From positions 9,024-73,023 of the forward strand of contig DATJFP010000021.1 in the NCBI GenBank assembly GCA_035495615.1: a DNA stretch of 64,000 nucleotides, in the 5' to 3' direction. The stretch's first letter is position 1. Each line of letters starts with the position of its first letter. Below the pieces are notes generated by a model. The model saw nothing but the letters and a program-made list of their open reading frames with translations, did no database searches and was not told where the DNA came from. Positions 1 to 43,401 of the stretch are shown in pieces. This DNA comes from Verrucomicrobiia bacterium. Its GTDB lineage: Bacteria > Omnitrophota > Omnitrophia > Omnitrophales > Aquincolibacteriaceae. The position numbers were made by a program, and so were the translations under genes.

Positions 1-3000
1 CATCCGCAGCATGGCGGTCGTCATGGCCGAGGCCGAGCGCCTGGGCATTCCCAAGGACCAGTTCGAGTTCCAGGCGCTTTACGGCATGATTCCCGACGAA
101 GTCGTGGCCACGCTGCTCGAGATGGGCTACCGCGTGCGCATCTACACGCCGTACGGCGAGCTGCTTCCGGGCCTGGGCTATCTCGTGCGCCGCATCCTGG
201 AAAACTCCGCGAACGCGTCGTTTTTGAAAAATCTTTCCTTCAAAAAGAAAGACATCGAGGCCCAGCTCCGCGACCCGCGCGCGCTCGTGGCCGTGCCTCC
301 CGCCCCGAAACCCGAGGAACCCGTTGTTATTCCGGCCGCGCTTGAAAAGCGCCTGGCGGCTCTGGAGCGTCTCGCAAATCTCTGGGAAGGCGAGCCCGAA
401 GCCGCGCGCAGGATCCACGCGCTTGTCCGCGAGCGCCGCGCGCTCGAGCAGAAAGCCGCGGCCAGCGTGCTGACCGTTCCCGGCGAAGCCAACCGTTACC
501 GTTACATTCCCCGAGGCCCCGGCGCCGTCATCATCGAAGACGCGCTGAATATCCCGGACCTCGTGGAGATGCTGGCCGCGCCTCTGGCGGGCGGCAATCA
601 GGTCAAGGTCTCGCTGCCCACCGGCGTCTCGCCGTCCACGCGGCAGCTTATCGCGAACGTTTTTGATTCCGCGGGCTTCACGCGCGGCGAAATCGAAATC
701 CTGGACGGCGTGCCCGGCAGGGCGGAACAGCTTGCCGCGCAGCCGGAGCTGACGTGGATTTCGTACCGCGGCCCTCCGGAAAGGGAAAACCAGTTCCGCC
801 GCATCGTCTATTCCCATCTCCTCGATCAGAACACGCCCAAGCGTTTTGTCACGCAGGTGACGCCCGATTACGCCGCGGAATTCGTCATGGGCAAATCCGA
901 ATCGCAGAACACCATGGCCATGGGCTTTGCCACGACGCTGCAGAAAACCGGCGGCGAGCCCGGGTTCACCAACGAATCGCCCGTCCCGCTTTTCCGGCCG
1001 GAAAACCAGCGGCTCATGGAAGAAGCGCTGGCGCGCGCCCGCGCCGCGTTCGGCAAAGAATATCCGCTCTTCATCGGCGGCGAAGAAGTCATACTGACCG
1101 AGTTCATGAATTCCACCAATCCCGCGCATCCCGATCAGGTGATCGGCCGCGTTTCCAAAGGCACGGCCGCGCACGCGGCCGCCGCGGTGAAAGCCGCGAA
1201 GGCCGCTTTCGAAGGAACCGAAGGCGTCCAGGGCTGGGGCAAGAAAAGCGCCGAGGAACGCGCCGCGTACCTGCGCAAGGCCGCGCACATCATGGCCGAA
1301 CGGAAATTCGATCTTGCCGCCGTCATCGTCCTGGAAGTCGGCAAGACCTGGCGGGAATCGCTCGCGGACGTGGACGAGGCCATCGACTTCCTTAATTATT
1401 ATGCCGCGAACATCCTGACCCTCGAGCAGGAAGATCAGGCGCTCGCCGCAAGCGACCCGCGCTGGGCGAATTTCAAGCGCGCGCCGAACGGTGTGACCGC
1501 GGTCGTGGCGCCGTGGAATTTTCCGCTCGCGATTTTGACGGGTATGGCTTCCGGCGCTCTCGCGGCCGGCAACACCGTGATCCTGAAGCCGGCCGGACAG
1601 TCCATGGTCATCGCGGCGAAACTCATGGAAATTTACCGCGACGCGGGTTTTCCCGCGGGCGTCGTCAATTTTGTTCCCGGACCGGGCCGCGAAGTGGGCG
1701 GAAGGCTTGTCGGGCACGAAGACGTGGACACGGTGGTGTTCACGGGTTCCCGCGAAGTCGGGCTCGGCATGGTCGAACAGGCCGCGGCCTCGGACCGCGC
1801 GGGCAAGCGCCCGAAAAACGTGATCGCGGAAATGGGCGGCAAGAACGCCGTCATCGTGGACGAGAGCGCGGACCTGGACCAGGCCGTCGACGGCGTGATC
1901 AACAGCGCCTTTTCCTACTGCGGCCAGAAATGCTCCGCGGGCTCGCGCGTCATCGTGATGCGTGAAGTCTACGACAAGTTCACGGCAAAGCTGCGCGCCA
2001 AATTCGAAGCCCTCAACATCGGGTCCCCGGAAGAGCCGGACACGCTGTTCGGCCCGGTCATCGATCCCGCGGCCCGGCAGACGATCGAGCGGCAGTTCAA
2101 GGAGCATGCGCGCGACACCGAGCACCTGGCCGTCCTCGCGGAAAGAAAGCTCGTGCCCGAAGGCCGCATTGATCCGGCCGGTTCCTACGTTGATCCCATC
2201 ATCTACCTGGACGTGAAGCGCGATTCCAAGCTCGCTCGTGAAGAAATTTTCGGGCCTGTGCTCGTCGTGATGCCCGCCGAGACTTTTGACGAGGCCCTCA
2301 GCATTGCCAACGATACGGCGTTCGGCCTCACCGGCAGCCTTTATTCGCGCATCCCCAGCCACATCGAACGTTACCGCGACGAAGTGCTCGTCGGCAATGC
2401 CTACATCGAGCGCGGTTCCACCGGCGCCCTCGTGGGCTGGCACCCCTTCGGCGGCTACAAGCAATCCGGCATCGGCTCCAAAGCCGGCGGCCGCGATTAC
2501 CTGATGCAGTTCATGCACTGGGAAGATACCGGCGCGTCCCGTCCGGAGATGAGGTCCGGCATCGACATGACCGCGCTTCCCGGAAAACTGAAGGCCCTGC
2601 ACGCGGAAGCCAAGCGCAAGCTCGCGGATGCTCACGAATATCATGAAAAACTGAACGTGATGAAGCAATACCAGATCGATCTGGAAAAATTGATGGGCGA
2701 GCTTTACCGGTCGGGCCGGAACTGGAAAGAAACGGTCGCGGCCATGAATCTCGCGGAGCAGCTCTGGAAACAAGAAGGCTGGGAGCCGCAGTTCGGCCGC
2801 TTCCTCCAGCATTTCATCCTGTCCCAGAAAATGTTCATGGAAGTCGGGCAATACCAGGACCTGCAGGAAGACGTTTTCCGCCTGGTCAGCCAGGCCGGCG
2901 AACCCGAAGACCGGCTCTGGGCCTGGTGGGTTTATCTCGCGGCGAGTACGTACCATCTCCGCTATTTCGGGCTGCACGTGGAAGCGCGCCAGGATAACAA

Positions 3001-6000
3001 CAAGCTCGTCGTCGTGGACCAGCAGCTCATCCAGAAGATCATGGTCGAATATTTCATGCCGGAATTCTTGAAATGGCGGAAAGAGAAAGCGGCCGAAATC
3101 GCCCGTGAAGGAACGGCGGAGCACAGGACTTACCGCGCCATGCTGTGGATGCTCGGCTCGGTTTTCGATTACCGCATCTACGATTCGGAAAGCCTCGCCT
3201 TTTCCTACGCGAGCAGCAACGACCGCGAACGGCGCAACAAGCGCTTCGAGTACCTGCGGGACCCGAAAGAATTTTTCCCCGGAGGCCCGGCCGAATCGAT
3301 TCCATATTTCTTGAAGCCGATGCTGGCCGCTGCTCCGGAAGCGGAGATGAAGGCGCTTTTGCAGGAAATCCTCGAGATGCGCGGCCGGGACGTGTCCGCG
3401 GGACGGCCCGAATATATTTGGGACGGGGCCAATCCGCGGATGCGGCTCATCGCGGCCGGAATTCTCGCGCTGGGCAGCGGCATGGAACAGCTCATGCACA
3501 TGCCCCAGGAATCTCTCGATGCGCTGGCCAAGGAATCTGAATCCAACCTGCTCATGCTCAATGCCACCAGTCAGTTCAGGGTCGGCCCCTATCAGGCGCT
3601 CGAGGAAGCGCTTCATACGGCGCCGTCCCTTGCCGACGTTCCCGCGCGGCTCGCGGAAAAAACAAAACCGGAATTTTTGATCTCGTGGCCTGATTTCGAG
3701 GCCCGGCTGCAGCGCCAGGTGCAGATTTTGAAGGGGGGGAATCTCGGCATCCGGAACGTGGACGTCGCGAACGATTACGTGGAAGTGGTTTTCGGAGAAA
3801 CAGGCAGACGCGCCCTGGAGGCCATGAGGCGCATGCTGGGGATCCTGCACGGGGACTTCCACCGCAATCCGCTCGGCCTGCGGGAGCGCCCGCTGGAATC
3901 CTGGGGCCAGATCCGGCCCGGCACGATCCTGAAACACTACAAGCGCGTCCAAAAAGACGAGCCCGCCTCATGGAAAACTTTTTATGTCATGGATGTGCTC
4001 CCCGGTGAGAACCAGGACCTGGACTCCGCCTTTGTCGTCTCCGACGACGGAAAACCGCGCCTGCTTTCGCGGCGGGGCATGGAACGTCGCCTGCCGGAAT
4101 TTCAGCTCGTCATTCCCGGCGTCCAGCCCGGCGTTTTGCAGAACCCGCTTGTCCTGCTCGCGCCGGATGCGGATGCCGAAGCCGTGATCCGCGGAATCTT
4201 GGAAAAATGGGTGGGCGGTCCTGAAGTCATCGTCCCCGCGCAATTCAAGAGAGGCAAAGAGCTCTCGGGCATCGCAAAAAAACTCGCGGCGGTCAGCGGT
4301 CCGATCCAGCCTTCGGATGTGAACAATGCCTTCCGAGAGGCGCGCCTGAATTTCAAAACCAAGGGCAAGGGCGCGGACATTGCCGCCGAAATCAACGCGG
4401 CGCTGGGGCGGAACGAGACCAAGACGGAATTAAGAAGCGCGAATCCGCGGCTTCTTCGCATCCTGGATTATCTCGCCGCAAACCCGGAACTCCAGGTCCG
4501 GCTCCAGTACCCGAACGATTGGCCGGATTCTTCCCGCGTCGAAATCACCGGGCCCTTGGATTATTTCGGCATTAAGGCCGCGTTCGGCAGCGTGACGGAA
4601 AATTACGAAGTCAAAGAAGACGAGCGCTTTGTTTTCTGGGACGCGGAATTTGCGGCCTATCTCGCCGGCCAAAACCGTTTGTATGCGAGTCCTGAATTGC
4701 CCAAAAGCGAACTTCGGTCCGATGAGCAGTGGCCTGAACTGGAATATGTTCAGTCGCGGATCGACCTCCTGAACAGCGCGGCGCAGGGATGGCCGAACGC
4801 GTCTCCGGAAAGCCTCCGCTCTTTAGTGAAAGGCATCCGGACGCTCCAGGCGGTCCTGAGAGCCATGGAATTCAAAACCCCGGCCGTGGATTGGGCCGGC
4901 TACGAGCAAAGCCGCAAGGCGAAATTGGCGCGGCTCCAGGCTCTGGAAAAGTCGCTCAGGAATGTGCTGCTCAACCGTTACGTGCCGTGGAATCTCTTCG
5001 GCGGCCTCGTTCTGGGCATCGCCGCCGTCGCCGTCATGGCCGTTCTGAAAGTTCCCGTCATGGGTATCGCGGTGGCCGTGGTCTTCGGCGGTTCTTTCCT
5101 CCTTGGAACGGTCTTTCATATCGAGACCTTGCTGGTGGAGGGCGCCATCCAGCAAAGCGCAGTGCCGGAATTCCTGCACGCGGAAGAACGCGCGGAGTTG
5201 AGGATAGGGGAGAGCGCGCAATTTCCGGACGAAACGGACCTGAAGAGAAGGATCCACGCGTTCTGGGAAGACTACATTTTGAACGGCGTCGTTTATACCG
5301 GCACCGACGAGCGCTACCTGCCGTCCATCCGCGAGCACGGGCTCACCTCCGACGAAAAGTCCAAACCGTACGACGAAGAAGATTACCGGTTCCTGAGGGA
5401 GCTCGCGGCGCGCGCCAGCCGTCCGGACGCGCAGGGGGATTACCGGCAGCACGCCATCGTGGATTTTCCGAGCTGGAGCGGTTTTTATATCACCGACGAT
5501 TTCCGGACGGCCTTCTCCTATGCCCAGCGCGGCCCGGAACGGGTCATGCTGCTCGAGAGATTCCTGTCGACCCTGATCGACTATTACGACCGCGGCCAGG
5601 TGGACCCTTCCGTGACGCGCGGCGACATGGAAAGAATCCGTGGCCTTCATGAAAAATACAAGACCCAGCGCACGGGAGGGGTGCCTGTTGTGATCCAGAT
5701 CCCCATGCAGCGCATCCTGCCGCTGCTTCCCGAACCCATGCGCGGCGAATTGCAGCGCTACGAAGCCTTCGAAGCCCAGATCCTCGCGCGGGTGCGCCAA
5801 TTCCCGATGGTCGACATCGGTTTCATCATGAAAGACATTTATCTGGCCGGCCTGCTCCGCAACAAAGGCATCGAAGGCACGCTGCCTTTCACCGAAGACA
5901 TGCGCGTCATCCCGTATCCTCCGACTTTCGGAGAATACCACGGCGAACTTCGCGCGGCGCCGCGGCCGGAAATGCGCGCCACGGCCGCTCCGAAGCCGGC

Positions 6001-9000
6001 ATCGCCCCAATTCTTCCTCGAAACCGGCTTTGGGCCGCATGGGAGCGTGCACTCGGTTTATCTTCTGGATCCCCGGATCAATCCGGCCCGCGACAAATTT
6101 ACACATCATGCCATCACGCTCCGGCTCGGGCCCGGCCATTACTCCGAAGACTACCGCGATCAGACCATCGTGTACGATTTCTTCGTCACGGACAAACCTT
6201 ATCCCGCGGACCGCGACCGGCTTATCGACCAGTCCGGCTACAAGGGGCATGCGGCGCTGCAGTTCGACGGCGAAGGGCGCCTCGAAAGCTGGCGGATCGA
6301 CATCAGCGGGCGCCGCCGCGCGGCCTTCCCGTGGCTCGAAGCCTCACTGGTCCGTTGGCTCAAGTCTCAGAAGGGAAAGAAATTCGACCGGTCCAATACT
6401 GATTTTCCCGCGCTTTCGAGCCTTCACCCGCTTTATGAAAAAGCCGACCGGCTGCTCGACCGGTTCAAAGCGAACGGCGTGCTGCCCGCGGATGAAGAAC
6501 GGCTTGCCGGGGAATTCGCGGCGCTCGGCCTGAATGCCGCGCCCGCGCTCGTGGATCTCGTGGAATTCGCGCATGAAGCGCAGGATAGAAACGCGGCCCT
6601 TCGCGTCGCCGTGCGCGCGCTGAGGATGATCGGAGCTCCGGCCGCGCCGCAGCTGATCGACGCGTTGAAGCGCGCGCGCGATGAAGAAACCCGCGCGGAC
6701 CTTCTTAAGGCATTGTCCGGCATGAAGCGCGCCGCCGTGCCGGCGCTCATGGCCGCGCTTCGCGATCCGGCCCTGCGCCCTTATGCCGCGTCGATCCTGC
6801 AGAAAACCGATCCCCGCCGTCCCACGGCCATCACCGTGTCGCCGATCGCGGATTTCGCGCAGTTCAAGATTCCCGACGAAGGCACGCTTCCGAAGAAAAA
6901 CATCCTGGTCTACGGCGGCCTGGGCGCGGTGATTCCGCGTTTTTATAAAGAACACATCGAGAAACTGGCCAGGCGCTACAACGTCGAGCTCGTGGCGCTG
7001 GACCTCATGCCCGATGATCTCGCGCGGCAGAGGATCGAATCTCAGGGGCTTCCTTATTCCACGTACTTCCAGGTGCCGCAGGGCAGCCCGCTCTTCGGGC
7101 AGCTCGGCGAATTCTTGAAAGCGCTGCTGGCCGAAGATCCCACGGGCGTGCTGCTGGTCACGCGCCCGAATTCGCACCTGGATTTCGTGCGCTGGGCCAC
7201 GGAAAACGACATGAACGTGTTCGTGGAAAAGCCCGTCGTGCTTCCGGGACACGTCCCGGCGCTGCGGGAAGTCTACCGCCAGCATCCGGACAAGGTTTTC
7301 GCCATCGACTTTTTCTTCGACAACAAATCCGCGCTCGACGGCTTCGAACTCTTGAAGGCCAAGAATTTCGGCGCGCTCAAGTCTGTGAACGGCCGCATGA
7401 TCGAATCCAACGGAATCGAAAAAGGCCGCGAGTGGCTGGTCAACCCGCGTGTAAGCGGCGGCGGCCTGGGCATGGACATGCTCGTGCATTTGTCCGCGCT
7501 CGGCGATCTGCTCCTCAGCAAATTCGGGCTCAGCTTGAAAGACCTGGAGCTGCATCCGGACGAAAGCTTTTTGTCGCGCTACGAAGGCGCGCCGGAAGAA
7601 ACCGAAACTTACGCGCGCGTGGCCGGTCACGTCAAAGGCGTTCTGGTCGATCTCGGCGCGGGCAAGGGAGCTCACACGTCCGCGTACTACATGATCCTGG
7701 AAGGCACGAAGGGCACTTTGGAAATCAATCTCGGCACGGAAAAAACGCCGCCTTTCCTCGAGCTGCGCGATTTGCGCGGCCGCGTGGTCTACCATCAGGA
7801 TTACGGCCCGGACATCGGTTATTATGGAACGGTCGGAAAAATTTTCGACGAGGCGCAGGGGCTGGGGCAGGTGAAGCAGTCCGAACGCGATTTCCGCATG
7901 CAGGCCACGACGCGCGCCGTGGAAGTGCTGGAAGAGGCGCAGCAAATCGTCGGCGAGCAGTACCAGAGCCACAAGCTCGGCGAGGATCCGGATGCGGCGC
8001 CTCGGAAAGCCGCACCCGCGGTGCCGAAAGTGGATTATCCCTATCGCGTGGTGCTGCCGAACGCCAAACACCCGGGCGAAGAGGTGCAGCTCGTGCAGGT
8101 CAGCACCCATGAGCCGGGCCGTTTTTACTGGGGCATTGTCGGACCGCATGTCGAATACGAAGGCGTGACCGTGCAGTTCACCAAGAAGCGCCTGGTCGTC
8201 TCGAATCTCAAGTTCCCGGAAAATGATCTGGAAGACGGCAATGCGGTGGCGGTCAGCATCCTGAGATGGCTTCTGCGGGAAGCGCGGAAATATTATCCGG
8301 ACGCGGAACATCCGCTCGAGATCACGGGCGTTCAGACGACGGAAATGATGCGCATCGCCGAAGAAGTTTTCGAGCCGGAAAGCGTGGAAGTCTACCACGC
8401 GATCGAAGAGAAATGGCGCAAGCCGTCGGAGCCCGGATTCGACCTCTACCGCGCTTACGGTCCGGTCAGCCTCGATTTCCACGACGGCTCCATCAAGGCC
8501 TCGAGAAACGGCACGGGATACAAAGTCGACAGCAATGTCTCGGACGCGGAAGTCGTCCTCGACGGCCACAAGATGACCGTGCGCCGTGACGGCCGCCGCG
8601 TGAACACGTCGTTCCTGGTTTCCTTTGAAATGCGCGGCAGGCCTTTGGCGGCGGCGCTGGCGGAACCCATGCACGCGGAACTGCGGGCCGTGCCTCTGCC
8701 GCAGCTGGCGGAAGCGGCGAACGAATATCTGGACGGCGGCAGGCCGGATGAAGCCGAGACTCTCTTGACCCAGCAGATTGCGCCTCTCTTGCGGCGCTCT
8801 CTAGGCGATTCGGCCACGGCTCCCGAGAATATCGCGGCCGGGCGCGAGGTTCTCTACGCCTATTCGAAACTGATCGGCGCGCGCGCGGGCGAAATCCAGG
8901 CGGTCACGGCTCTGGAAGGAACCGAAGGACGCGAACGGGGCGCGAAGATGCTCGCCGCTCTGGAAGAGCGCGTGAAAGAATCCGTGGAATTTCTTCGCCA

Positions 9001-12000
9001 TGAAAAGCTGCGCCGCGAACGCTGGAGCGCGGCCGTCCAAGCCGAGTTTGAATACCTTTCCGCCGGCCTCGCGGGCGCCTACATTGCGGCGGCCGAAAAA
9101 CTCCTTGCCGCCCCCGAAGGCGATGAGGCTGCGTCCCGGCAGGCCGCCGCGCGGGCCTGGCTGGATCATGCCGAGGGCGATCTGCAGGCTTACGAAAAGT
9201 ATGTGCGCGCCAACAGCCTGTACGGAGAACCTTTCCGGATGCTGACGGAGTGGCAGGCCCGGCTGGCGGCCGCGCGCCGGCTGCTTCCCGCGGCTCCCGC
9301 CGGAGAACCTGAAACGGCTGCCGCGGCAAAGCCCGCGGTCTTGCCCGCTGCGGGACCGCTTCTGACCGATCTCACGCGGCAGGTGCATGACCTTTTGAAT
9401 CAGCAAAAACGGGAAGAGGCGGAGCGCGTTCTTACCACCGAAGCGGCTCCGCTGATGAGGCGCTATCTCGAGGATTCCACGGGATTGCCGGAGCTTCCCA
9501 TCAAGGCCGGGAGCTATGTGGTCGCGGGTTACAACCGTCTGGTGCGCGGCACGGCTCTTTTCATCACCGCCGAACCGGACCTGAACGGAACCCAGGGCCG
9601 GGAATGGGCCGCGGAATGGCTTCAGCATCTCGATGCTTTAATTGCCGAAACCGGTTTCTTCTTGAATCATCCCAAACATCGGACGGCGCCCTGGTTTGAT
9701 GAGGCGACCTTCAATTTCCACCGCAATTCCCTGGGCGTTGCTCAGGCTTATCTCTCGGCTGCGGAAAAACTGATGAAGAGCCTGGACAATGACGACGCGT
9801 CCGCGCGAAAGGCCGCGGCTGAAACCTGGCTCACGCGGGCGGACAAAGATCTCGGTTTTTATGAAGTCTTTTTGCGGCGATATCGCATGGCCCCTTCCTT
9901 TTTTGATGAATTCAGGACGGTTCAGAGCCGGGCCCGCGCCTTGAGGGAAACAGCCTTCACCGAAAAGCCCCCCGCGCCCGCGGCGAAATCCGTTATCGCG
10001 GCCGAGCCTAACTTGCCGGCCATGGTCAAAATCATGCACCAACAACTGAGCGGCGGAATGCCCGATGAAGCCGAAGCACTGCTCCTGGACAAGATCGGCC
10101 CGCTCATGCGGCAATATTTGACCGATTCCCACGACCTGCCGGTCATTCAGATCTCGACGGGGAGTTACGTGACTTCGGGGTATTCCAAACTGGTCGGCAT
10201 CCGCGGTGAACAGCTTCGGACCAGCACCGATGAATTTGAGGGACGGGAAGGCCGGGAACGCGCGGCGCGCCTGGTCGAGCGCCTGGAACGCCTCAACCAG
10301 GAAGGGCGCGACATCCTGAAGCATCCCAAACACCGCGAGACCGAATGGCATTCGCGGGCCCAGTTTTATTTTAATCTCGTGAGCGCCGACTTTGCCGCCG
10401 CCCATGTCGCGGCCGCGGAAAAACTCATGAAGAATCTCGAAGGCGACGATGCCGAGGCGAGAAAAGCGCAGGCAAAGGCCTGGCTCGAACTGGCGGAAGG
10501 GGAGCTTCGCGTCCACGATCTTTTCCTGCAGCGTCAGAAGCTCCAGCCCAAATACCATGATTTTCTTGCGCTCTGGCAGGAAAGGGCGCGCCAATTAAGG
10601 CAGCGCTTTTTCACCGAAGTTCAGGCGGTACGCGAAACCGTCCCGGCTCCCGCTGACGGCAAATCCATGGCGGCCGTGACAACCCTCGCGAAACCGGCGG
10701 GCGCGGCTCCGGCCGCGGTTCCTCCCGCGGTCAGGCAAGCGCCGCCCGCGGCGAAGAAACCGGCTGAAGAGGTCCGGAGCGAACCGGTGCGTTCCCGCGA
10801 GCCCCAGAAAAAGGAACTCACGCGCGAAATCGCGGGCACGATCGCGGCGAAAGTTCTGCATGATCTGAATCAGGCCAAAGGCGATTTCGCGGAGCTCGCG
10901 GACCTGGAAGCCTTTCTTGTCCGCCAGGAAGGCCGGGCGCAGAAACGGCACGGCATTGTTTCGGCGGGACTCACGGATCCGGAATTGAAACTCCTGAAAA
11001 GCCCGGAGATCACGGCCAAGGCCGTGGCGCAGCTTGTGACCGCGATTGAAGAGGTCCGGAAAAAGCTGGCCGGCGGAGAAAACGCGGAAGAAGCAGCGGA
11101 GCCCGTGAAAAAAGGCGGCAGGGCAAGACGCGGCGAAGCACCCGAAGAGATCACGGCCCCGCAGCCCTCGCCCGGTGAAGAGGCTCCGAAGAAACGCGAC
11201 CGTGCCGAAAAAGCCGCGAAAAAACTGGACGGCAAAAAAGACCCGCGCGGCCACATGAGGGACCTGCGCGACGCCGTGCGTTCCGTGCGCGACGGCGACA
11301 CAAGCGAAGTGCGGAAGCTTTTCCCGCGCGCCAAGCAGATCATGCTGCGCTGGGACGCGCACGGCAATAAAACCGACGTGAAGGAACATCTGCGCGCCTT
11401 CCGTGCGGCGGAAGCGCTCCTGCATGAAGAGCCGGCCGCTTTGAAATCCGAATTGCGCATGGCCGAACCCCGCAAAATCGACAGGGCCGGCGGGCTTGGG
11501 AATTACGTGAAGGAAGCCGTGCGCCGCGCGCCGCGGTACCAGGTCTGGGGGAAACAGTTCTTCCTGTCGCCGGACCTTCCTTACGACTTGCCGCCGGAAA
11601 GCCTGGCGCAGGCGCCGGCCTTCGTGAGGCAGGCGATCGACCATCTTCGCACCCGGCTCATCGACCAGAAGGGAAGCCATCCCATGGCGCTGGCCCAGGC
11701 GATCAGCCTGGTCGAAATCGAGCATTGGAGGCGGGAAGACGAACAATTCGATGCAAAGCGGTATCAGAAGCTTTTCCAACAGCTGTTCGAGTCGCCGCTG
11801 TGGCTTGACGAGATCGCGAATCCGGAAGGGAAGATCTCGATCGTGCTGCTGGGCAACACGCCGGACGCTTCGCATTACATCGTCTGGCGCGGCAAGGACA
11901 GGAACTTTGCGATTTCCAATGTGAGCTCCATGGGCCGCTACGCCATCCGTATCCGCGAAGGGACGTTCAAAGCCATGATGGACAATCATGATCCCGCGGC

Positions 12001-14143
12001 GCTCGCCATCCTGATCCTGCGCGGCGTTTTCAGGATTTTTATCCGTGAGGCCAGCAAGGTCCAGGGCTGGCAGGATGAAATGGGCATTGACGAAGAAGTC
12101 GCTGTGGAAATTCTCAGATATGTGGCGGATTCCAGGGCGAGCATCGACAGCTACAAAAAATATTATGAGCAGGAAGAGCAAAAGCTGAGGGATGCCCGCC
12201 GCGAGCAGTCACTCGCCTTGATCGGCGAAATGCGCCGGCAGTTCGGGGCGGAAACGGCCCGGCCTTACGACGTCATCACATTCATGACGCAGCGCAAGAA
12301 TCACAAGAAAACCGTGACCAACAAACAGTTCCCGTTTTATCTCAGCGAAATCGAACAGGCCGTCCGGGAAGAAAAAATCTACGGGGCCAGCTACGGCGCG
12401 GGACGGCATGGGGCGGCCTTCCGCATCTATCTCGGCTTCGAGCCCGAGGACCTCAACACGGAGGTCGCGCTTTCGCCGGAAGAAGCTCTGCACCTGTTCC
12501 TGGATCACACGCTCATCGCCGTCACCAACGAAATCCGCAAAGGCGCGCTGGCCGTTGACACCCATGGGACCCAGCTCAAGAAGGAGAATTACGAGGAGTT
12601 TGCCGACGCGTTTTCGTGGAAGGGCATGGACTTTTTGAAAGAACAGATCAAGACCGGACGCCTGCAGCTCGTGCGACGGCAGGGAAATTTCGTCAAGCTG
12701 CGCGTTGCGGACATCGGCGAATATCTTCCAAAGGCGGAGTTGAGGGTGGCATCCGCGCCGCGGCAAGTGTATGTGCCGCGCTTTACCTGGGGTAAAAAAG
12801 ACGATTGGACCACCAACTGGAAAGAGTATCTCGAGGCATTATGGAAAAAATACGCGGGCACCGACGATGTCCGCAAAGTGAGTTTTTTCGCCGAATCGAC
12901 GCACGGCCTCTTCCACGATTTCCAGCCGGAACCCCGGGCCGAAGAATCCCTGGCTTTGCCGGTGTACGACAACAAGAAGAAGCTTGTGGGCGAAATCCAT
13001 GTCGTAGTCTTGGATGCGCACACGAACGCCGTTGCCATGCTGCGTTTGGTGAAGCCCGGCGAATTGACGGATGAAACCGACGCGTCAGGCGTGGAAGCGC
13101 GGATCGCGTCGAAGTGGAAAGGCTGGGCTAAAGTGCCCTTCGTCACCCAATTTGATTCGGGTGTGGAAATGGGATTGATGTCCACGGTGCGTCCGATCGA
13201 AGACATCCACCGCGAACTTCTCGCGGCTTTGCGCGGCCTTTGGGAAAAAGCCCAGGCGCAGGCGCGCGGGGAAGGCCGGGTCGTAGTCGACTTCCCGGTG
13301 CCCGCGAGTGTGACGCCCGACCGCGCGGAGTTACGGGAAGCGGCTCCGGAGAATCTCAATTTGTATTTTGCAGCGCAGTATCCGGCGTCTTTGGAAGCCG
13401 TGCGCTCGGTTTATGATGAAGTCGCGCGGCAGACTTTGAGCAATGTTCATCCGCGCTGGGTGCTGGAAGCCTTCCTGAACCTGTATGCTCCTTCGGCGCG
13501 GGATCAGGTCCTGGATCAAAGCCATCCGCTCTTCCAGGCCGCGCGCAAGGCCATGGGCGAATATGCGTGGCTCTTGGACGGCGATGCGTCTTCGCACGTT
13601 CAGCTCATCATGCGTCTGCCCGCGGGAGAAGATTATGCCGCTTATCGCGCATCGATCGTTCTGGCGCTGGGGCGCGGGGACAGGATTTCTTTCGTGGCGC
13701 CGGGCATGGATGAAGCTCAGACCGAAGCCGCGCGCCGGGCATTCCTGGGGCCGCTCGAAAAAGTTTTCGGAACCGCGCTTGCCGCGGACCGCAATATCCG
13801 CATCGTTCCCACGCCCGCCGGCCGCGCCGAAGTGCTGCGCGCCATTCAGCGTTTTGCCGCGGATCATTCGTTTGCCGGAGAAAGCGGCGTGCTGGATACG
13901 GACAAGGCGTTTCTGCAGGAAGTGGGTTTCCGCGGCTCGAAGCTTCTTCTCAATCCCGAGCAGCTGCGCCGCGAAGTCGCGGTCGTGATCACGGCTGCGC
14001 TGCTGCGCAGCCAGCTGCCGGACACGTACTCCATCGTCGAGCTCGACCAGTGGATGCGCGAAAAAGGCCTGGACGCGGACACGCTCGTCGCGCGCGTCAG
14101 CCAGATGATCCAGGCCATCGAAAGCTTCACGGCTTCCGCGTAA
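1..14143 (+). CDS. Giant multidomain protein, 5'-partial (>=4,710 aa in window). PutA-like proline dehydrogenase C-terminus and 1-pyrroline-5-carboxylate (glutamate-semialdehyde) dehydrogenase domain, fused in-frame to a ~3,850-aa extension of largely unknown function
   Basis: A single uninterrupted reading frame runs from the window edge to TAA at 14141-14143. The first ~75 aa match the end of the PutA PRODH barrel (YLVRRILENSANASFL). ALDH catalytic motifs are present (VAPWNFPLAI, EMGGKNAVIVDESADLD, FSYCGQKCSAGSRVIV, catalytic Cys). Downstream sequence is protein-like, with a TM hairpin, HEAT repeats, a Gfo/Idh/MocA Rossmann domain and 3 tandem repeats. Chance absence of stops over ~3,850 codons is negligible, but GC3 bias also suppresses stops, so independent in-frame genes or internal starts cannot be excluded. 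Confidence 0.72.
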   Translation, partial: IRSMAVVMAEAERLGIPKDQFEFQALYGMIPDEVVATLLEMGYRVRIYTPYGELLPGLGYLVRRILENSANASFLKNLSFKKKDIEAQLRDPRALVAVPPAPKPEEPVVIPAALEKRLAALERLANLWEGEPEAARRIHALVRERRALEQKAAASVLTVPGEANRYRYIPRGPGAVIIEDALNIPDLVEMLAAPLAGGNQVKVSLPTGVSPSTRQLIANVFDSAGFTRGEIEILDGVPGRAEQLAAQPELTWISYRGPPERENQFRRIVYSHLLDQNTPKRFVTQVTPDYAAEFVMGKSESQNTMAMGFATTLQKTGGEPGFTNESPVPLFRPENQRLMEEALARARAAFGKEYPLFIGGEEVILTEFMNSTNPAHPDQVIGRVSKGTAAHAAAAVKAAKAAFEGTEGVQGWGKKSAEERAAYLRKAAHIMAERKFDLAAVIVLEVGKTWRESLADVDEAIDFLNYYAANILTLEQEDQALAASDPRWANFKRAPNGVTAVVAPWNFPLAILTGMASGALAAGNTVILKPAGQSMVIAAKLMEIYRDAGFPAGVVNFVPGPGREVGGRLVGHEDVDTVVFTGSREVGLGMVEQAAASDRAGKRPKNVIAEMGGKNAVIVDESADLDQAVDGVINSAFSYCGQKCSAGSRVIVMREVYDKFTAKLRAKFEALNIGSPEEPDTLFGPVIDPAARQTIERQFKEHARDTEHLAVLAERKLVPEGRIDPAGSYVDPIIYLDVKRDSKLAREEIFGPVLVVMPAETFDEALSIANDTAFGLTGSLYSRIPSHIERYRDEVLVGNAYIERGSTGALVGWHPFGGYKQSGIGSKAGGRDYLMQFMHWEDTGASRPEMRSGIDMTALPGKLKALHAEAKRKLADAHEYHEKLNVMKQYQIDLEKLMGELYRSGRNWKETVAAMNLAEQLWKQEGWEPQFGRFLQHFILSQKMFMEVGQYQDLQEDVFRLVSQAGEPEDRLWAWWVYLAASTYHLRYFGLHVEARQDNNKLVVVDQQLIQKIMVEYFMPEFLKWRKEKAAEIAREGTAEHRTYRAMLWMLGSVFDYRIYDSESLAFSYASSNDRERRNKRFEYLRDPKEFFPGGPAESIPYFLKPMLAAAPEAEMKALLQEILEMRGRDVSAGRPEYIWDGANPRMRLIAAGILALGSGMEQLMHMPQESLDALAKESESNLLMLNATSQFRVGPYQALEEALHTAPSLADVPARLAEKTKPEFLISWPDFEARLQRQVQILKGGNLGIRNVDVANDYVEVVFGETGRRALEAMRRMLGILHGDFHRNPLGLRERPLESWGQIRPGTILKHYKRVQKDEPASWKTFYVMDVLPGENQDLDSAFVVSDDGKPRLLSRRGMERRLPEFQLVIPGVQPGVLQNPLVLLAPDADAEAVIRGILEKWVGGPEVIVPAQFKRGKELSGIAKKLAAVSGPIQPSDVNNAFREARLNFKTKGKGADIAAEINAALGRNETKTELRSANPRLLRILDYLAANPELQVRLQYPNDWPDSSRVEITGPLDYFGIKAAFGSVTENYEVKEDERFVFWDAEFAAYLAGQNRLYASPELPKSELRSDEQWPELEYVQSRIDLLNSAAQGWPNASPESLRSLVKGIRTLQAVLRAMEFKTPAVDWAGYEQSRKAKLARLQALEKSLRNVLLNRYVPWNLFGGLVLGIAAVAVMAVLKVPVMGIAVAVVFGGSFLLGTVFHIETLLVEGAIQQSAVPEFLHAEERAELRIGESAQFPDETDLKRRIHAFWEDYILNGVVYTGTDERYLPSIREHGLTSDEKSKPYDEEDYRFLRELAARASRPDAQGDYRQHAIVDFPSWSGFYITDDFRTAFSYAQRGPERVMLLERFLSTLIDYYDRGQVDPSVTRGDMERIRGLHEKYKTQRTGGVPVVIQIPMQRILPLLPEPMRGELQRYEAFEAQILARVRQFPMVDIGFIMKDIYLAGLLRNKGIEGTLPFTEDMRVIPYPPTFGEYHGELRAAPRPEMRATAAPKPASPQFFLETGFGPHGSVHSVYLLDPRINPARDKFTHHAITLRLGPGHYSEDYRDQTIVYDFFVTDKPYPADRDRLIDQSGYKGHAALQFDGEGRLESWRIDISGRRRAAFPWLEASLVRWLKSQKGKKFDRSNTDFPALSSLHPLYEKADRLLDRFKANGVLPADEERLAGEFAALGLNAAPALVDLVEFAHEAQDRNAALRVAVRALRMIGAPAAPQLIDALKRARDEETRADLLKALSGMKRAAVPALMAALRDPALRPYAASILQKTDPRRPTAITVSPIADFAQFKIPDEGTLPKKNILVYGGLGAVIPRFYKEHIEKLARRYNVELVALDLMPDDLARQRIESQGLPYSTYFQVPQGSPLFGQLGEFLKALLAEDPTGVLLVTRPNSHLDFVRWATENDMNVFVEKPVVLPGHVPALREVYRQHPDKVFAIDFFFDNKSALDGFELLKAKNFGALKSVNGRMIESNGIEKGREWLVNPRVSGGGLGMDMLVHLSALGDLLLSKFGLSLKDLELHPDESFLSRYEGAPEETETYARVAGHVKGVLVDLGAGKGAHTSAYYMILEGTKGTLEINLGTEKTPPFLELRDLRGRVVYHQDYGPDIGYYGTVGKIFDEAQGLGQVKQSERDFRMQATTRAVEVLEEAQQIVGEQYQSHKLGEDPDAAPRKAAPAVPKVDYPYRVVLPNAKHPGEEVQLVQVSTHEPGRFYWGIVGPHVEYEGVTVQFTKKRLVVSNLKFPENDLEDGNAVAVSILRWLLREARKYYPDAEHPLEITGVQTTEMMRIAEEVFEPESVEVYHAIEEKWRKPSEPGFDLYRAYGPVSLDFHDGSIKASRNGTGYKVDSNVSDAEVVLDGHKMTVRRDGRRVNTSFLVSFEMRGRPLAAALAEPMHAELRAVPLPQLAEAANEYLDGGRPDEAETLLTQQIAPLLRRSLGDSATAPENIAAGREVLYAYSKLIGARAGEIQAVTALEGTEGRERGAKMLAALEERVKESVEFLRHEKLRRERWSAAVQAEFEYLSAGLAGAYIAAAEKLLAAPEGDEAASRQAAARAWLDHAEGDLQAYEKYVRANSLYGEPFRMLTEWQARLAAARRLLPAAPAGEPETAAAAKPAVLPAAGPLLTDLTRQVHDLLNQQKREEAERVLTTEAAPLMRRYLEDSTGLPELPIKAGSYVVAGYNRLVRGTALFITAEPDLNGTQGREWAAEWLQHLDALIAETGFFLNHPKHRTAPWFDEATFNFHRNSLGVAQAYLSAAEKLMKSLDNDDASARKAAAETWLTRADKDLGFYEVFLRRYRMAPSFFDEFRTVQSRARALRETAFTEKPPAPAAKSVIAAEPNLPAMVKIMHQQLSGGMPDEAEALLLDKIGPLMRQYLTDSHDLPVIQISTGSYVTSGYSKLVGIRGEQLRTSTDEFEGREGRERAARLVERLERLNQEGRDILKHPKHRETEWHSRAQFYFNLVSADFAAAHVAAAEKLMKNLEGDDAEARKAQAKAWLELAEGELRVHDLFLQRQKLQPKYHDFLALWQERARQLRQRFFTEVQAVRETVPAPADGKSMAAVTTLAKPAGAAPAAVPPAVRQAPPAAKKPAEEVRSEPVRSREPQKKELTREIAGTIAAKVLHDLNQAKGDFAELADLEAFLVRQEGRAQKRHGIVSAGLTDPELKLLKSPEITAKAVAQLVTAIEEVRKKLAGGENAEEAAEPVKKGGRARRGEAPEEITAPQPSPGEEAPKKRDRAEKAAKKLDGKKDPRGHMRDLRDAVRSVRDGDTSEVRKLFPRAKQIMLRWDAHGNKTDVKEHLRAFRAAEALLHEEPAALKSELRMAEPRKIDRAGGLGNYVKEAVRRAPRYQVWGKQFFLSPDLPYDLPPESLAQAPAFVRQAIDHLRTRLIDQKGSHPMALAQAISLVEIEHWRREDEQFDAKRYQKLFQQLFESPLWLDEIANPEGKISIVLLGNTPDASHYIVWRGKDRNFAISNVSSMGRYAIRIREGTFKAMMDNHDPAALAILILRGVFRIFIREASKVQGWQDEMGIDEEVAVEILRYVADSRASIDSYKKYYEQEEQKLRDARREQSLALIGEMRRQFGAETARPYDVITFMTQRKNHKKTVTNKQFPFYLSEIEQAVREEKIYGASYGAGRHGAAFRIYLGFEPEDLNTEVALSPEEALHLFLDHTLIAVTNEIRKGALAVDTHGTQLKKENYEEFADAFSWKGMDFLKEQIKTGRLQLVRRQGNFVKLRVADIGEYLPKAELRVASAPRQVYVPRFTWGKKDDWTTNWKEYLEALWKKYAGTDDVRKVSFFAESTHGLFHDFQPEPRAEESLALPVYDNKKKLVGEIHVVVLDAHTNAVAMLRLVKPGELTDETDASGVEARIASKWKGWAKVPFVTQFDSGVEMGLMSTVRPIEDIHRELLAALRGLWEKAQAQARGEGRVVVDFPVPASVTPDRAELREAAPENLNLYFAAQYPASLEAVRSVYDEVARQTLSNVHPRWVLEAFLNLYAPSARDQVLDQSHPLFQAARKAMGEYAWLLDGDASSHVQLIMRLPAGEDYAAYRASIVLALGRGDRISFVAPGMDEAQTEAARRAFLGPLEKVFGTALAADRNIRIVPTPAGRAEVLRAIQRFAADHSFAGESGVLDTDKAFLQEVGFRGSKLLLNPEQLRREVAVVITAALLRSQLPDTYSIVELDQWMREKGLDADTLVARVSQMIQAIESFTASA
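970..2560 (+). other. Aldehyde dehydrogenase (P5C dehydrogenase, RocA/PutA-type) domain within the giant ORF
   Basis: N-terminal RocA-like FGKEYPLFIGGEEV. Motifs VAPWNFPLAI, ILKPAGQ, EMGGKNAVIVD, GQKCSAGSRV and C-terminal GWHPFGGYKQSGIGSKAGG. Confidence 0.85.
4990..5120 (+). other. Predicted two-helix transmembrane hairpin inside the giant ORF
   Basis: About 42 consecutive hydrophobic residues, LFGGLVLGIAAVAVMAVLKVPVMGIAVAVVFGGSFLLGTVF, flanked by charged residues. Confidence 0.5.
6570..6800 (+). repeat. HEAT/PBS-lyase-like helical repeats inside the giant ORF
   Basis: Repeated ~30-aa units APALVDLVEFAHEAQDRNAALRVAVRALRMIG / APQLIDALKRARDEETRADLLKALSGM / AVPALMAALRDPALRPYAASILQ. Confidence 0.5.
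6900..7900 (+). other. Gfo/Idh/MocA-family NAD(P)-binding oxidoreductase-like domain inside the giant ORF
   Basis: NILVYGGLGAVIPRFY...VLLVTRPNSHLDFVRWATENDMNVFVEKPVVL matches the Rossmann N-domain and EKP motif of the Gfo/Idh/MocA family. Confidence 0.55.
8750..10650 (+). repeat. Three tandem intragenic repeats of ~630-650 nt (~215 aa each) in the giant ORF
   Basis: Units start at ~8750, ~9410 and ~10060. Shared protein signature: (D/E)EAExLLT..IAPL(L/M)RRYL.DS..LP...GSYV..GY.KLVG ... EGRE ... HPKHR..W ... AAAEKLMK.L..DDA.ARKA.A.AWL. Each unit ends in a Pro/Ala-rich spacer. Confidence 0.7.
10650..11300 (+). other. Lys/Ala/Pro/Glu-rich low-complexity linker in the giant ORF
   Basis: Composition (AAPAAVPPAVRQAPPAAKKPAEE..., KKGGRARRGEAPEE..APKKRDRAEKAAKKLDGKKDPRG) consistent with a disordered segment. 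Confidence 0.5.
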
Positions 14144-14226: not shown

Positions 14227-14255
14227 TTGACACGCCGGAACGCAGCTTCTATAAT
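14227..14255 (+). promoter_or_regulatory. Sigma70-type promoter for tRNA-Gly: TTGACA, 17-nt spacer, TATAAT
   Basis: Perfect consensus hexamers at 14227-14232 and 14250-14255, ~30 nt upstream of the tRNA 5' end. Confidence 0.6.
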
Positions 14256-14285: not shown

Positions 14286-14359
14286 GCGGGCATAGCATAA
14301 TGGTAATGTCCCAGCCTTCCAAGCTGGTCATGCGGGTTCGATTCCCGCTGCCCGCTCCA
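14286..14359 (+). tRNA. tRNA-Gly (anticodon TCC), CCA encoded
   Basis: Hand-folded cloverleaf: acceptor GCGGGCA/TGCCCGC, anticodon loop CTTCCAA, T-arm GCGGG-TTCGATT-CCCGC, 3' TCCA. Confidence 0.85.
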
Positions 14360-14762: not shown

Positions 14763-15668
14763 TTACGCCGCCATAATCTTCTTGTTCAGAAGATCCTGCG
14801 AAGGAAGCTTGATCGCTTTCGCCAGCCCCAGCTTTTCGAGGATCTGGATCGCGAGATAAGTGGAATCAAATTCCCACCACTTGAGGCCGTGGCGCGCGGA
14901 GTGTTGAAAAGCGTGATGGTTGTTGTGCCAGCCTTCACCGTAGGTGATCAGGGCAACCCACCAGAGGTTTCTCGAATCATCTTTGCTGTCGTAGGTCTTG
15001 TAGCCCCACACATGGGCTGCGGAATTCACGAGCCAGGTGGAGTGATAAACCAGGACCAGGCGCACGAAAACGCCCCAGATCACATAGGGCCATCCGCCCC
15101 AGGCATACAGGCCGGCGGCGAGAAGGAAGGTCCAGAGAATGTGGATGCGGTCAAGGAACACAAGGCCTTTGTCTTTGGCCAGGTCCGGAGCGTGCTTGGA
15201 ATAGAGGGCGAAATTATCGATGTCCTTGCTTTTGTTCATGCACCAGCCCATGTGCGCCCAGAAAAAACCCTGAAGCGGGCTGTGCGGATCGCCTTCCATG
15301 TCGGAGCGCGTGTGATGGAGGCGGTGAGCCGCCACCCAGGAAACCGGGCCGCCCTGGCAGGCAAGCGAGGCAATGGCCGAAAGAACATATTCCAGAGGCT
15401 TCGGAACTTCAAAGCTGCGATGGGTCAAGAGGCGGTGGTACGTCAGGGTAATGCCCAGACCGCCGGTCACCCAGTGAAGTACGACGCAAAGCAGAACTGC
15501 GTCCCACCGGAACGGGGTAAAGAAGGCCGCCAAGGCGCCGATGTGCACGCCTATAATGAAGAAAGCCGGAATGATTTTGATATTGGCCAGCATTTCCCGA
15601 AACGTCTTTTTGGCCAAAGGACGAGTTTGGGGTGCGGCGACAGGTGCTTCTAAGAGATCAGGGGACAA
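14763..15668 (-). CDS. Acyl-CoA (delta-9 type) fatty acid desaturase
   Basis: Three His boxes HRLLTHRS, HRLHHTRSD, HNNHHAFQHSARHG. Multiple TM segments. Confidence 0.85.
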   Translation of the reverse strand: MSPDLLEAPVAAPQTRPLAKKTFREMLANIKIIPAFFIIGVHIGALAAFFTPFRWDAVLLCVVLHWVTGGLGITLTYHRLLTHRSFEVPKPLEYVLSAIASLACQGGPVSWVAAHRLHHTRSDMEGDPHSPLQGFFWAHMGWCMNKSKDIDNFALYSKHAPDLAKDKGLVFLDRIHILWTFLLAAGLYAWGGWPYVIWGVFVRLVLVYHSTWLVNSAAHVWGYKTYDSKDDSRNLWWVALITYGEGWHNNHHAFQHSARHGLKWWEFDSTYLAIQILEKLGLAKAIKLPSQDLLNKKIMAA

Positions 15669-15984: not shown

Positions 15985-16012
15985 TTGACACCCCGGGGTT
16001 TTTTGTTATAAT
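15985..16012 (+). promoter_or_regulatory. Sigma70-type promoter upstream of nusA: TTGACA, 16-nt spacer, TATAAT
   Basis: Hexamers at 15985-15990 and 16007-16012 in an AT-rich divergent intergenic region. Confidence 0.5.
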
Positions 16013-16045
16013 AGGGACCCAATTCAGAGTAGTGCAGGCACAGAA

Positions 16046-17387: not shown

Positions 17388-17390
17388 ACC

Positions 17391-19442: not shown

Positions 19443-19502
19443 CAGTTCCTCAAGAGTTATCCCTTCCACAGTCCGGGAGCAAATTTTTTTCAGGAGATTG
19501 GA

Positions 19503-19898
19503 ATGCAAGGCAAGCGCACGGACCGTGTGGCCCATCTCATGCAGATGGAACTCAGCCAGCTCGTCCTGACGAAAATCAAAGACCCGCGTTTGGGCTTTGT
19601 CACGATTACGCACGTGGACGTGGCGCCGGACCTGCGTTCGGCCTGCGTTTATTTCAGCGTGCTCGGCACGCCGGAGGCCAAAAAGAATTCGCAGACCGCG
19701 CTGGAGCGGGCCGCGGGATTCCTGCAGCGGGAAGTGTCCGGCGCGATCAAGCTGAGAAACACCCCGAAGCTCGTATTCAAGCTGGACGAGTCGCTTGAAA
19801 AGGGCATGGAAATCGACGGCATTCTGAAACAGATCAAGTCGACAGACGACACAGAAGACGGAGAACCGTCGGAAAGCCAGGACCCGAGTGAAGCGTAA
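19503..19898 (+). CDS. rbfA: Ribosome-binding factor A
   Basis: RbfA signature RVAHLMQMELSQLVL...DPRLGFVTITHVDVAPDLRSACVYFSVLG. Confidence 0.85.
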   Translation: MQGKRTDRVAHLMQMELSQLVLTKIKDPRLGFVTITHVDVAPDLRSACVYFSVLGTPEAKKNSQTALERAAGFLQREVSGAIKLRNTPKLVFKLDESLEKGMEIDGILKQIKSTDDTEDGEPSESQDPSEA

Positions 19899-42996: not shown

Positions 42997-43128
42997 ATTC
43001 TTCGCTCCCAGAGGCAGGTCAAAGTCCAGCATCTTACCCGAAATCCCAGCCGGAGGCATCCGGGAAAGCATCTTCTCTCATAAGAAAATTGCGGGAAATT
43101 GTGATAGTTTATCCGCCGGAGGATCAAC

Positions 43129-43299
43129 GATGACCGAACAAAATCCGGCGCCGGAAAGCACGGCTGTCCGCGTGGCTTTGTGGCGTGCCCTGCATGGGGA
43201 AATCGATGCGCGGCCGTTTATCTTCGAAGAACAAAGTCTTATAAAGCCGGGCGGGCTCCGAATCAATGTCGGGAATGGCGTAATTATTTTTGTCGCGTA
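43129..43299 (+). pseudogene. Short ORF resembling the N-terminus of a class I SAM-dependent (LCMT/Ppm1-like) methyltransferase. Probable gene remnant
   Basis: 56 aa MTEQNPAPESTAVRVALWRALHGEIDARPFIFEEQSL... matches the N-terminal helix pattern of that family (TA..VA..RA.H......P...D..A). RBS GGAGGA. Far too short for the fold. Confidence 0.35.
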
Positions 43300-43401
43300 A
43301 TATAATTTTATACTAGCATAGGGTGAAATCACGGACTGTCGGGAAAAGGAGCAGGATTCGTCCGGCGGAAATGCCGAACCAAGCAAGGACAGGGGTAATT
43401 T

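Follow-up and report, generated by a model that had tools for sequence, protein, structure and literature searches.

What kind of product is made by a bacterial gene that encodes a proline catabolic enzyme and then fails to stop? The question is raised by the left end of a 64,000-nt stretch of contig DATJFP010000021.1 (assembly GCA_035495615.1, positions 9,024 to 73,023 of the forward strand), here called the window. The first 14,143 nucleotides (nt) of the window carry a single open reading frame (ORF) in which a PutA-like enzyme is followed without interruption by almost four thousand further residues. We find that the product is a chain of complete, mutually unrelated modules of 94-924 amino acids (aa) joined by a short junction peptide, and that the gene is a member of a very rare giant-gene family that encodes proteins of 4,000-7,800 aa in bacteria of the Planctomycetes-Verrucomicrobia-Chlamydiae (PVC) group. 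The junction motif is the organizing feature of the protein and was overlooked in the preliminary description of this DNA. We propose, with a probability of about 0.5, that the product is a polyprotein precursor that would be cut at the junctions by an arginine-directed protease.

The 14 kb segment from nt 2 to 14143 is the 3' part of one real gene. As the preliminary description had stated, a single giant frame runs to 14143; frame +2 is stop-free from nt 2 to the TAA at 14141-14143, a total of 4,713 sense codons. Over the same 14 kb the other plus-strand frames contain 74 and 129 stops and two antisense frames contain 143 and 146, whereas the antisense frame that shadows the G + C content of third codon positions (GC3) has 11. 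A codon-position profile, one of the checks called for earlier, gave coding-type values throughout: GC3 lay between 0.67 and 0.81 and GC2 was about 0.4 in all 600-nt blocks, which argues for one continuous coding frame. The alternative that several genes had been merged because GC3 bias removed their stop codons was not borne out, as GC3 is uniform and the ordinary neighbouring genes end in TAA, TGA and TAG. Since all three stops are in use the standard code applies, stop-codon reassignment is ruled out and neither stop loss through GC3 bias nor a variant code explains the ORF. The ORF-listing program placed the start at the ATG of nt 11, yet the frame is already open at the left window edge. 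The gene start lies upstream of the window because the sequence from nt 2 onward encodes the C-terminal end of a proline dehydrogenase (PRODH) barrel. The source NCBI contig has 78,068 nt, which exceeds the window by 14 kb, and, given a visible product of 4,713 aa, the whole product is at most ~9,400 aa.

The visible N-terminal module is a PutA with an L-glutamate gamma-semialdehyde (or pyrroline-5-carboxylate, P5C) dehydrogenase domain, as first described. Pfam places the C-terminal end of Pro_dh at aa 2-76 and Aldedh at aa 369-840 (474.7 bits), and the NCBIfam L-glutamate gamma-semialdehyde dehydrogenase model matches with E = 4e-173, though below its curated equivalog cut-off. The catalytic motifs EMGGKNA and GQKCSA of the P5C dehydrogenase (P5CDH) domain are intact (E610 and C644). 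Only the final 75 residues of Pro_dh fall within the window (profile positions 204-277 of 278), and homologues that span 97-99% of the visible PutA part have the full Pro_dh domain. The closest of these (P0013-P0017) are 45-47% identical over that span and are stand-alone proteins of 1,186-1,208 aa, sizes that place ~350 aa of PutA upstream of the window. The stand-alone PutA homologues terminate 3-13 residues past the conserved W/L of an F-x-H-W motif. The window counterpart of this motif is FMHWED (aa 837-842), and the pentapeptide RPEMR, which constitutes the first junction, ends 11 residues past its W. Thus, the ORF concatenates whole proteins. The preliminary description had held that separate homologues ending at the domain boundaries would speak against a single gene; such endings are indeed seen for PutA at the first junction, but the ORF itself is not broken. 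Likewise, PutA and the extension do share one continuous ORF, but PutA is not a head with a weld, rather it is one cassette among at least 11. The module resembles PutA in its PRODH end, its aldehyde dehydrogenase (ALDH) domain, its catalytic residues and its alignment with ~1,200-aa stand-alone proteins, and differs in that the chain runs on for 3,862 aa past the junction peptide (the earlier estimate was ~3,850). To our knowledge no characterized PutA extends beyond its C-terminus, and the earlier remark that this architecture is foreign to characterized PutA proteins is upheld.

At its module boundaries the window product repeatedly shows the motif [R/K/H]-x-E-[L/M]-R, in most cases with a small residue next in the chain. 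There are ten sites where 0.6 are expected, and the maximum in 2,000 shuffles of the protein was 4. The 20 neighbouring genes (10,521 aa) contain no site. A broader form of the motif occurs at ~0.2 per 1,000 aa in 120 PutA homologues versus 2.1 per 1,000 aa in the window product. The ten sites divide the visible product into segments of 851+, 627, 94, 162, 250, 8, 903, 924, 429, 197 and 268 aa. Their codons differ synonymously wherever this is possible (GAA/GAG for Glu, TTA/CTT/TTG/CTG for Leu and AGA/AGG/CGG/CGC for Arg), which places the selection on the peptide instead of on an element of the DNA or RNA. A nucleotide-level signal at the window junctions (a hairpin, a Shine-Dalgarno-like sequence or a recombination core) is ruled out by the same synonymous variation of every motif codon. 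The stretch GASRPEMRSGID bears a junction and is a candidate cleavage peptide. We also noted SFEMR at aa 2874-2878 (nt 8621-8635), 12 residues before the site HAELR, which may be the degenerate first half of a double site comparable to those with 18-22-aa spacers in the relative P0004.

Only three proteins were returned by a search with the 3,862-aa extension; one has 2,297 aa, and the other two have ~5,000 aa each. All-versus-all comparison of segments revealed one shared element, the 620-aa family signature called module X, in segments of 617-740 aa. The core motifs of the window copy are HLRYFGLHVE and DYRIYDSE (HLRxFGxHxE ... DxRIxDSE in the family), and it matches the copies of P0001, L2g, L1g, P0004 and P0005 with E-values of 1e-111 to 1e-36. 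A looser family core, HLRxxGxHxE ... LW..G...D, is likewise seen in the window copy. A module X profile hidden Markov model searched against 1.84 billion representative proteins found 11 clusters, seven of which are of 4,004-6,541 aa; the GTDB genome set and a JGI metagenome set each added one further locus. The structural model of module X is a helical solenoid with a small SH3/FeoA-like beta domain and shows no protease fold. In five of six close copies it is flanked by junction sites on both sides. More distant module X-like domains, in proteins without the junction motif, were found in the smaller secreted proteins P0007, P0008 and P0011. P0007 and P0008 (927-1,975 aa) have a signal peptide, a shared N-terminal 'LKGL..P.NPF.FDFIVD' domain and a C-terminal GGIDL region, and may be non-polyprotein ancestors or cousins of module X.

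All close members of the family are punctuated by R-[S/A]-E-[L/A/V/I/M]-R. The number of sites is 12 in P0001 (mostly RxEIR), at least 13 in P0002/L001 (mostly RSEAR), 15 in L002 (mostly RAEVR), 25 in P0004 (mixed form), 14 in P0005, 17 in P0009, 8 in P0010 and 13 in P0012. Nine giants together contain 133 sites, 5-12 times more than in shuffles. With the final Arg of the pentapeptide numbered P1 and the residue that follows it P1', P5 is Arg in 85% of these sites, P4 is Ser/Ala in 80% and P1' is Ser/Thr/Ala in 56%, and there is an excess of Pro at P6. The primary N-degron residues L/F/Y/W are found at P1' in 4 of the 133 sites versus 26 expected, the strongest depletion among the flanking positions. 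The median junction-to-junction distance in the nine giants is 298 aa, the size of an average bacterial protein, and Pfam domains never straddle a site in P0002 or P0010. An ARMT1-like phosphatase (aa 2484-2810) stands alone within segment 2436-2844 of P0010, as does FabD (aa 3427-3684) within segment 3400-3729 of P0001 (by motif position). The cargo of the relatives differs from genome to genome and includes SecA, a D-2-hydroxyacid dehydrogenase, HAD/NIF phosphatases, FabD, HPr, an HATPase, an alpha/beta hydrolase and the ARMT1-like phosphatase.

The junctions and the two ends of the giants have further features in common. Double sites enclose a spacer of 8 aa in the window product and of 4-40 aa in the relatives. 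P0004 repeats composite linkers, such as DPQSLNPIGSRAEIR and RSELRPEI[ND]ISGT[PT]L[RI]T[GR]RSELR, and its 18-22-aa spacer peptides are conserved among themselves within the one protein. At the C-terminus [S/A]-A is found in seven of eight complete relatives and in the window product, where the last module has 268 aa (~250-340 aa in the relatives). Among the window product, P0001, P0002, L002, P0004, P0009 and P0012 the endings are TASA, AQAA, ESAA, QTAA, LRSA, FYSA and SRAA. The chance of such an ending is ~1-2% per protein, and it is similar to the signals of C-terminal degrons or of tail-specific proteases. By phmmer the C-terminal modules show no homology to each other (all E-values > 0.03) and have only the terminal [S/A]-A in common. 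At the other end, an N-terminal signal anchor plus a conserved module is present in P0001 (aa 1-532), P0004 (aa 1-688), P0012 (aa 1-716) and L003 (1594-3498). The invariants of this module are Q-x-A-H, E-G and G-G-F-H (QDAH...EG...GGFH), its low-confidence model resembles the TraB, ChaN, EreA and RRSP folds, and stand-alone homologues of 507-607 aa occur in Omnitrophota. The full P0002 gene (L001) is L003 1594-25000, which would encode ~7,800 aa; a frameshift in the SecA DEAD motif splits it into 2,801 and 4,999 aa and could be an assembly error, a pseudogene lesion or programmed frameshifting.

The form of the pentapeptide is specific to the genome. Window genes are deposited as HTL46915, HTL46921 and HTL46951 with the label 'MAG TPA [Verrucomicrobiae bacterium]' (MAG, metagenome-assembled genome), and P0005 (HTL48979) has the same organism label and belongs to the same accession series. 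The window gene and P0005 probably come from one genome. P0005 also matches the window in its variant, with K/R/H at P5 and L/M at P2 (KSELR, KPELR, RPELR, KTEMR, HAEMR), whereas the other genomes are each dominated by another P2 residue (RxEIR, RSEAR or RAEVR). A variant shared by two such genes and distinct elsewhere is to be expected if the sites co-evolve with a recognition factor encoded in the genome. P0010 and the N-terminal-module homologues are labelled Candidatus Omnitrophica/Omnitrophota; both this phylum and the Verrucomicrobiota, to which the other label refers, lie within the PVC group.

The modules of the window product are given in Table 1. Searches of the 3,862-aa extension against Pfam, NCBIfam, PADLOC and PDB sequences gave nothing except weak Gfo/Idh/MocA matches, and ~3,000 aa of it have no match in these sets. 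Several elements reported earlier in the extension were recovered: at aa 1661-1707 the membrane hairpin of two helices, at aa 2896-3551 the tandem repeats of ~215 aa (three copies of 217-222 aa, 36-38% identity) and at aa 3541-3819 the basic linker, which is rich in A/E/K/R/P. Two others stand in part. The Gfo/Idh/MocA domain is backed by 28% identity to P0003, which has PF01408 among its precomputed Pfam matches, and by faint oxidoreductase matches in PDB sequences, but its own Pfam match (E = 6e-4) is below the curated cut-off. HEAT repeats are not called by Pfam in the window, but aa 2173-2266 match a P0012 stretch (phmmer E = 7e-5) judged by eye to be HEAT-like.

Table 1 Modules and junctions of the giant gene product, with nucleotide positions in the window and residues counted from the first visible codon
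Feature	Position (nt)	Strand	Residues (aa)	Terminal junction (aa; nt)	Basis or remark
Giant ORF, 5'-truncated by window edge	2..14143	+			4,713 codons + TAA; GC3 0.67-0.81
Module 1, PutA: PRODH barrel end, ALDH-like insert, P5C dehydrogenase	2..2554	+	1-851	RPEMR	Pfam, homologues
Junction 1, RPEMR	2540..2554	+	847-851		motif
Module 2, module X	2555..4435	+	852-1478	KTELR (1474-1478; 4421-4435)	family signature
Module 3, 94 aa	4436..4717	+	1479-1572	KSELR (1568-1572; 4703-4717)	motif positions
Module 4, with two-helix membrane hairpin (aa 1661-1707, nt 4982-5122)	4718..5203	+	1573-1734	RAELR (1730-1734; 5189-5203)	
Module 5, 250 aa	5204..5953	+	1735-1984	HGELR (1980-1984; 5939-5953)	
Spacer AAPRPEMR, 8 aa, double site	5954..5977	+		RPEMR (1988-1992)	between two junctions
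Module 7: HEAT-like (aa 2173-2266), Gfo/Idh/MocA-like (aa ~2298-2591, nt 6893-7774)	5978..8686	+	1993-2895	HAELR (2891-2895; 8672-8686)	
Module 8: three tandem helical repeats (nt 8687-10654), then A/E/K/R/P-rich	8687..11458	+	2896-3819	KSELR (3815-3819; 11444-11458)	
Module 9, 429 aa	11459..12745	+	3820-4248	KAELR (4244-4248; 12731-12745)	
Module 10, 197 aa	12746..13336	+	4249-4445	RAELR (4441-4445; 13322-13336)	
Module 11, C-terminal, 268 aa, ending ...FTASA	13337..14140	+	4446-4713		

In the proposed polyprotein scheme, a dedicated Arg-directed endopeptidase would recognize the pentapeptide and cut at or just after its final Arg. Cutting would let a single transcript supply PutA and the remaining modules as separate proteins at a fixed stoichiometry, and sites and protease would co-evolve, as the genome-specific P2/P5 preferences suggest. 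A candidate for the protease would be the membrane-anchored N-terminal module of the relatives, whose low-confidence model is TraB/ChaN/TIKI-like. Precursor cleavage is argued for by the coincidence of sites with natural protein termini, by constraint at the peptide level (fixed P1 Arg and P3 Glu, small P1'), by double sites that enclose tiny spacers and by variants that are genome-specific. Moreover, SecA, FabD and PutA are implausible as working parts of a 5,000-8,000-aa chain, and N-terminal-type targeting signals directly follow junctions in the relatives. In P0004, RAEIR is followed by the Tat-like TEIHRREFLYLAGFSSAGLLGW and RSELR by SGEDEAKKKGRGINRRRVLWILGGIAAVG; in P0009, SSELR is followed by the lipoprotein-like AFKILKLIQLFSLIGLASVGC; and in P0005, KTEMR is followed by the N-terminal-type targeting signal AHHDKMPRQAARHIFLESGVLGLVAAL.

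Several observations weigh against this proposal. We infer the cleavage itself only indirectly, from the patterns given above. Pfam, NCBIfam and PDB searches found no peptidase domain in the window product, and no protease was found among the 20 neighbouring genes scanned. Hydrophobic segments soon after sites are weakly enriched (6 of 33 versus 3.3 expected), a strict Tat/lipobox scan after junctions gave a single case, and the signal-like sequences could be relics of once-independent genes. The depletion of hydrophobic residues at P1' is in part a general property of linkers, as flanking positions are also depleted.

The main rival is the suggestion, made in the preliminary description, of a membrane-tethered megacomplex or scaffold. 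The product would stay uncleaved, anchored by the hairpin, and the pentapeptide would be a linker or docking motif, possibly bound by module X to gather a multi-enzyme assembly. The hairpin is real, HEAT-like and repeat modules are present, the alpha-solenoid and SH3/FeoA-like domain modeled for module X are typical peptide-binding folds, uncleaved megasynthases are a known precedent and the failure of the searches to find a protease also counts in favor of this explanation. However, the cargo is functionally unrelated and different in every genome, so that substrate channeling is no explanation, and a SecA tethered in a 7,800-aa chain is hard to square with SecA function. The Tat-like and lipoprotein-like signals that begin right behind a junction require a free N-terminus. 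A strong preference for small P1' residues is typical of protease sites, and so is the pairing of sites around a tiny spacer. On balance the evidence favors a processed polyprotein over a megacomplex, which is less probable but a serious rival. Could the pentapeptide instead be a functionless scar of genes concatenated in frame by recombination or cassette insertion, the joint happening to encode R-x-E-x-R? Genomes differ in which modules the giant gene carries and in what order, module X alone being common to them, double sites could be duplicated joints, and the 15-nt sites are rather uniform in L001 and L002 (e.g., CGCTCCGAAGCGCGG). Variation among the L001 and L002 sites is, however, confined to third positions, and in the window all motif codons vary synonymously while the peptide is kept. 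As the P1' and P6 preferences also reach beyond the five codons and the motif is kept across relatives whose module X copies are ~30-40% identical, we regard a scar as improbable.

Production of several proteins without proteolysis, through translation that starts inside the gene or through RNA processing at the junctions, seems still less probable. An ATG follows one junction (nt 11459) and a GTG another (nt 12746), and there is in any case little Shine-Dalgarno signal among the genes of this genome. The internal ribosome binding sites and start codons sought after the junctions were, however, not systematic: six of the ten junctions lack a nearby in-frame start codon plus a Shine-Dalgarno-like element, and across the 133 sites P1' is mostly S/T/A, Met being rare (6/133). 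Internal promoters and terminators in the giant gene did not exceed chance, plus-strand internal promoters were not found, and upstream products would have no stop codons to end them. Finally, the DNA comes from a metagenome, the protein database contains the products of the neighbouring genes but not the giant one, and the relative L003 is frameshifted inside its SecA module, all of which would fit an assembly chimera, genes merged by stop loss or a decaying pseudogene. Such an artefact is hardly credible, since at least eight other genomes, assembled independently, show the same architecture, motif and module X, codon bias is uniform with no stop in 4,713 codons versus 74-146 in the other non-shadow frames, and the P5CDH catalytic residues are intact.

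The rest of the window is ordinary chromosome, with tRNA-Gly, nusA, infB, a DHH phosphoesterase gene, ribF, pnp, ftsK and genes for an ADP-forming acetyl-CoA synthetase, an H+-pyrophosphatase, desaturases and others. Perfect (12/12) sigma-70 promoters (TTGACA, 16-17-nt spacer, TATAAT) at 14227-14255 and 15985-16012 (+) immediately precede tRNA-Gly(TCC) (14286-14359) and nusA (at 16032), respectively. Long antisense ORFs of up to 1,368 aa at 16116-20222 (-), 1-3967 (-) and 6344-8674 (-) oppose nusA-infB and the giant gene; their GC1 exceeds their GC3, and they are by-products of GC3 bias and not genes. Three paralogous fatty-acid desaturase genes lie within 27 kb (14763-15668, 32134-33321 and 40711-41640, all -), the first with a strong terminator having a 14-bp stem (14737-14707). 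The ORFs 56493-59228 (+), 62035-63768 (-) and 43078-44481 (-), encoding 911, 577 and 467 aa, have coding-type GC3 and belong to no Pfam family.

Whether giant genes of the Omnitrophota type encode single megaproteins or precursors is a standing question, which becomes directly testable given a short, statistically unambiguous motif that coincides with natural protein termini and differs between genomes. Should cleavage prove true, this would be the first case known to us of ordinary bacterial housekeeping enzymes made as a polyprotein, a virus-like strategy of gene expression on a bacterial chromosome. Gene calling, functional annotation and metabolic reconstruction would be affected, as a '4,700-aa hypothetical protein' would be ~11 proteins, and synthetic biology could gain from the arrangement a compact system for stoichiometric expression. 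Somewhat more tentatively than for the window gene, we suggest that some PVC bacteria (Omnitrophota and at least one Verrucomicrobiae-labelled MAG) express unrelated cellular proteins, including PutA, SecA and FabD, as polyproteins cut at R-x-E-hydrophobic-R by a dedicated protease whose specificity co-evolves with the sites of each genome, in which case the motif would provide a cleavage map for the larger Omnitrophota giants. The literature library searched gave no relevant report on bacterial polyproteins, on the pentapeptides or on cleavage points.

In viral polyproteins (those of picornaviruses and flaviviruses and the coronavirus replicase), too, many unrelated proteins are encoded by a single ORF, with short consensus sites between them in which P1 is fixed and P1' is small; spacer peptides occur there as well, and the specificity of site and protease depends on the lineage. 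The differences are that the present gene lies on a cellular chromosome by nusA, infB, pnp and ftsK, that its cargo is metabolic and housekeeping, that cleavage is inferred and that neither the product nor the scanned neighbours showed a peptidase family to stand as a cognate protease of the viral kind. Bacterial precedents are the MARTX toxins of Vibrio, in which an embedded cysteine protease domain (CPD) cuts after Leu and cargo cassettes vary between strains, and the gingipains and HagA of Porphyromonas, where the gingipains cut after Arg or Lys. These too are giant or multi-domain bacterial precursors cut at inter-module linkers, but they are secreted virulence factors, whereas the cargo here consists of cytoplasmic and membrane housekeeping enzymes. 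Pfam found none of their characteristic repeats, no CPD and no C25 protease domain in the window product, and a MARTX-type self-processing toxin was rejected as neither Peptidase C80 nor RTX-like repeats were found (E <= 0.1).

The closest systems are the giant genes of Omnitrophota. West-Roberts et al. 2023 (10.1101/2023.11.21.568195) described such genes for proteins of up to >85,000 aa, suggested that C39/S8 peptidase domains within these proteins do the cutting and stated that the cleavage points are unknown. A 2026 preprint (10.64898/2026.06.07.730766) catalogued a 'multi-enzyme metabolic cluster' class of Omnitrophota giant proteins of at least 10,000 aa, which includes a SecA-DEAD architecture cluster, and does not mention cleavage or polyproteins. 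The present family resembles the giants of both reports in that very long single ORFs of PVC bacteria tile unrelated Pfam domains (SecA, HEAT, methyltransferases, HAD and HATPase) together with membrane segments, and in the Omnitrophica/Omnitrophota labels of P0010 and the N-terminal-module homologues. It differs in its length of 4,000-7,800 aa, the absence of C39/S8 domains, its defined junction pentapeptide and module X, and the Verrucomicrobiae label of the window MAG. Classification as an Archaeovorin/Dockerin-type giant in the sense of West-Roberts et al. was rejected, since Dockerin/TSP3 repeats and C39/S8 domains were not found and the length is far shorter. Hence, giant multi-enzyme genes of Omnitrophota are already known, while the junction motif, module X, the [S/A]-A tail and the genome-specific variants appear to be new, as does the occurrence in a Verrucomicrobiae-labelled MAG, and the motif may mark the cutting points of Omnitrophota-like giant genes.

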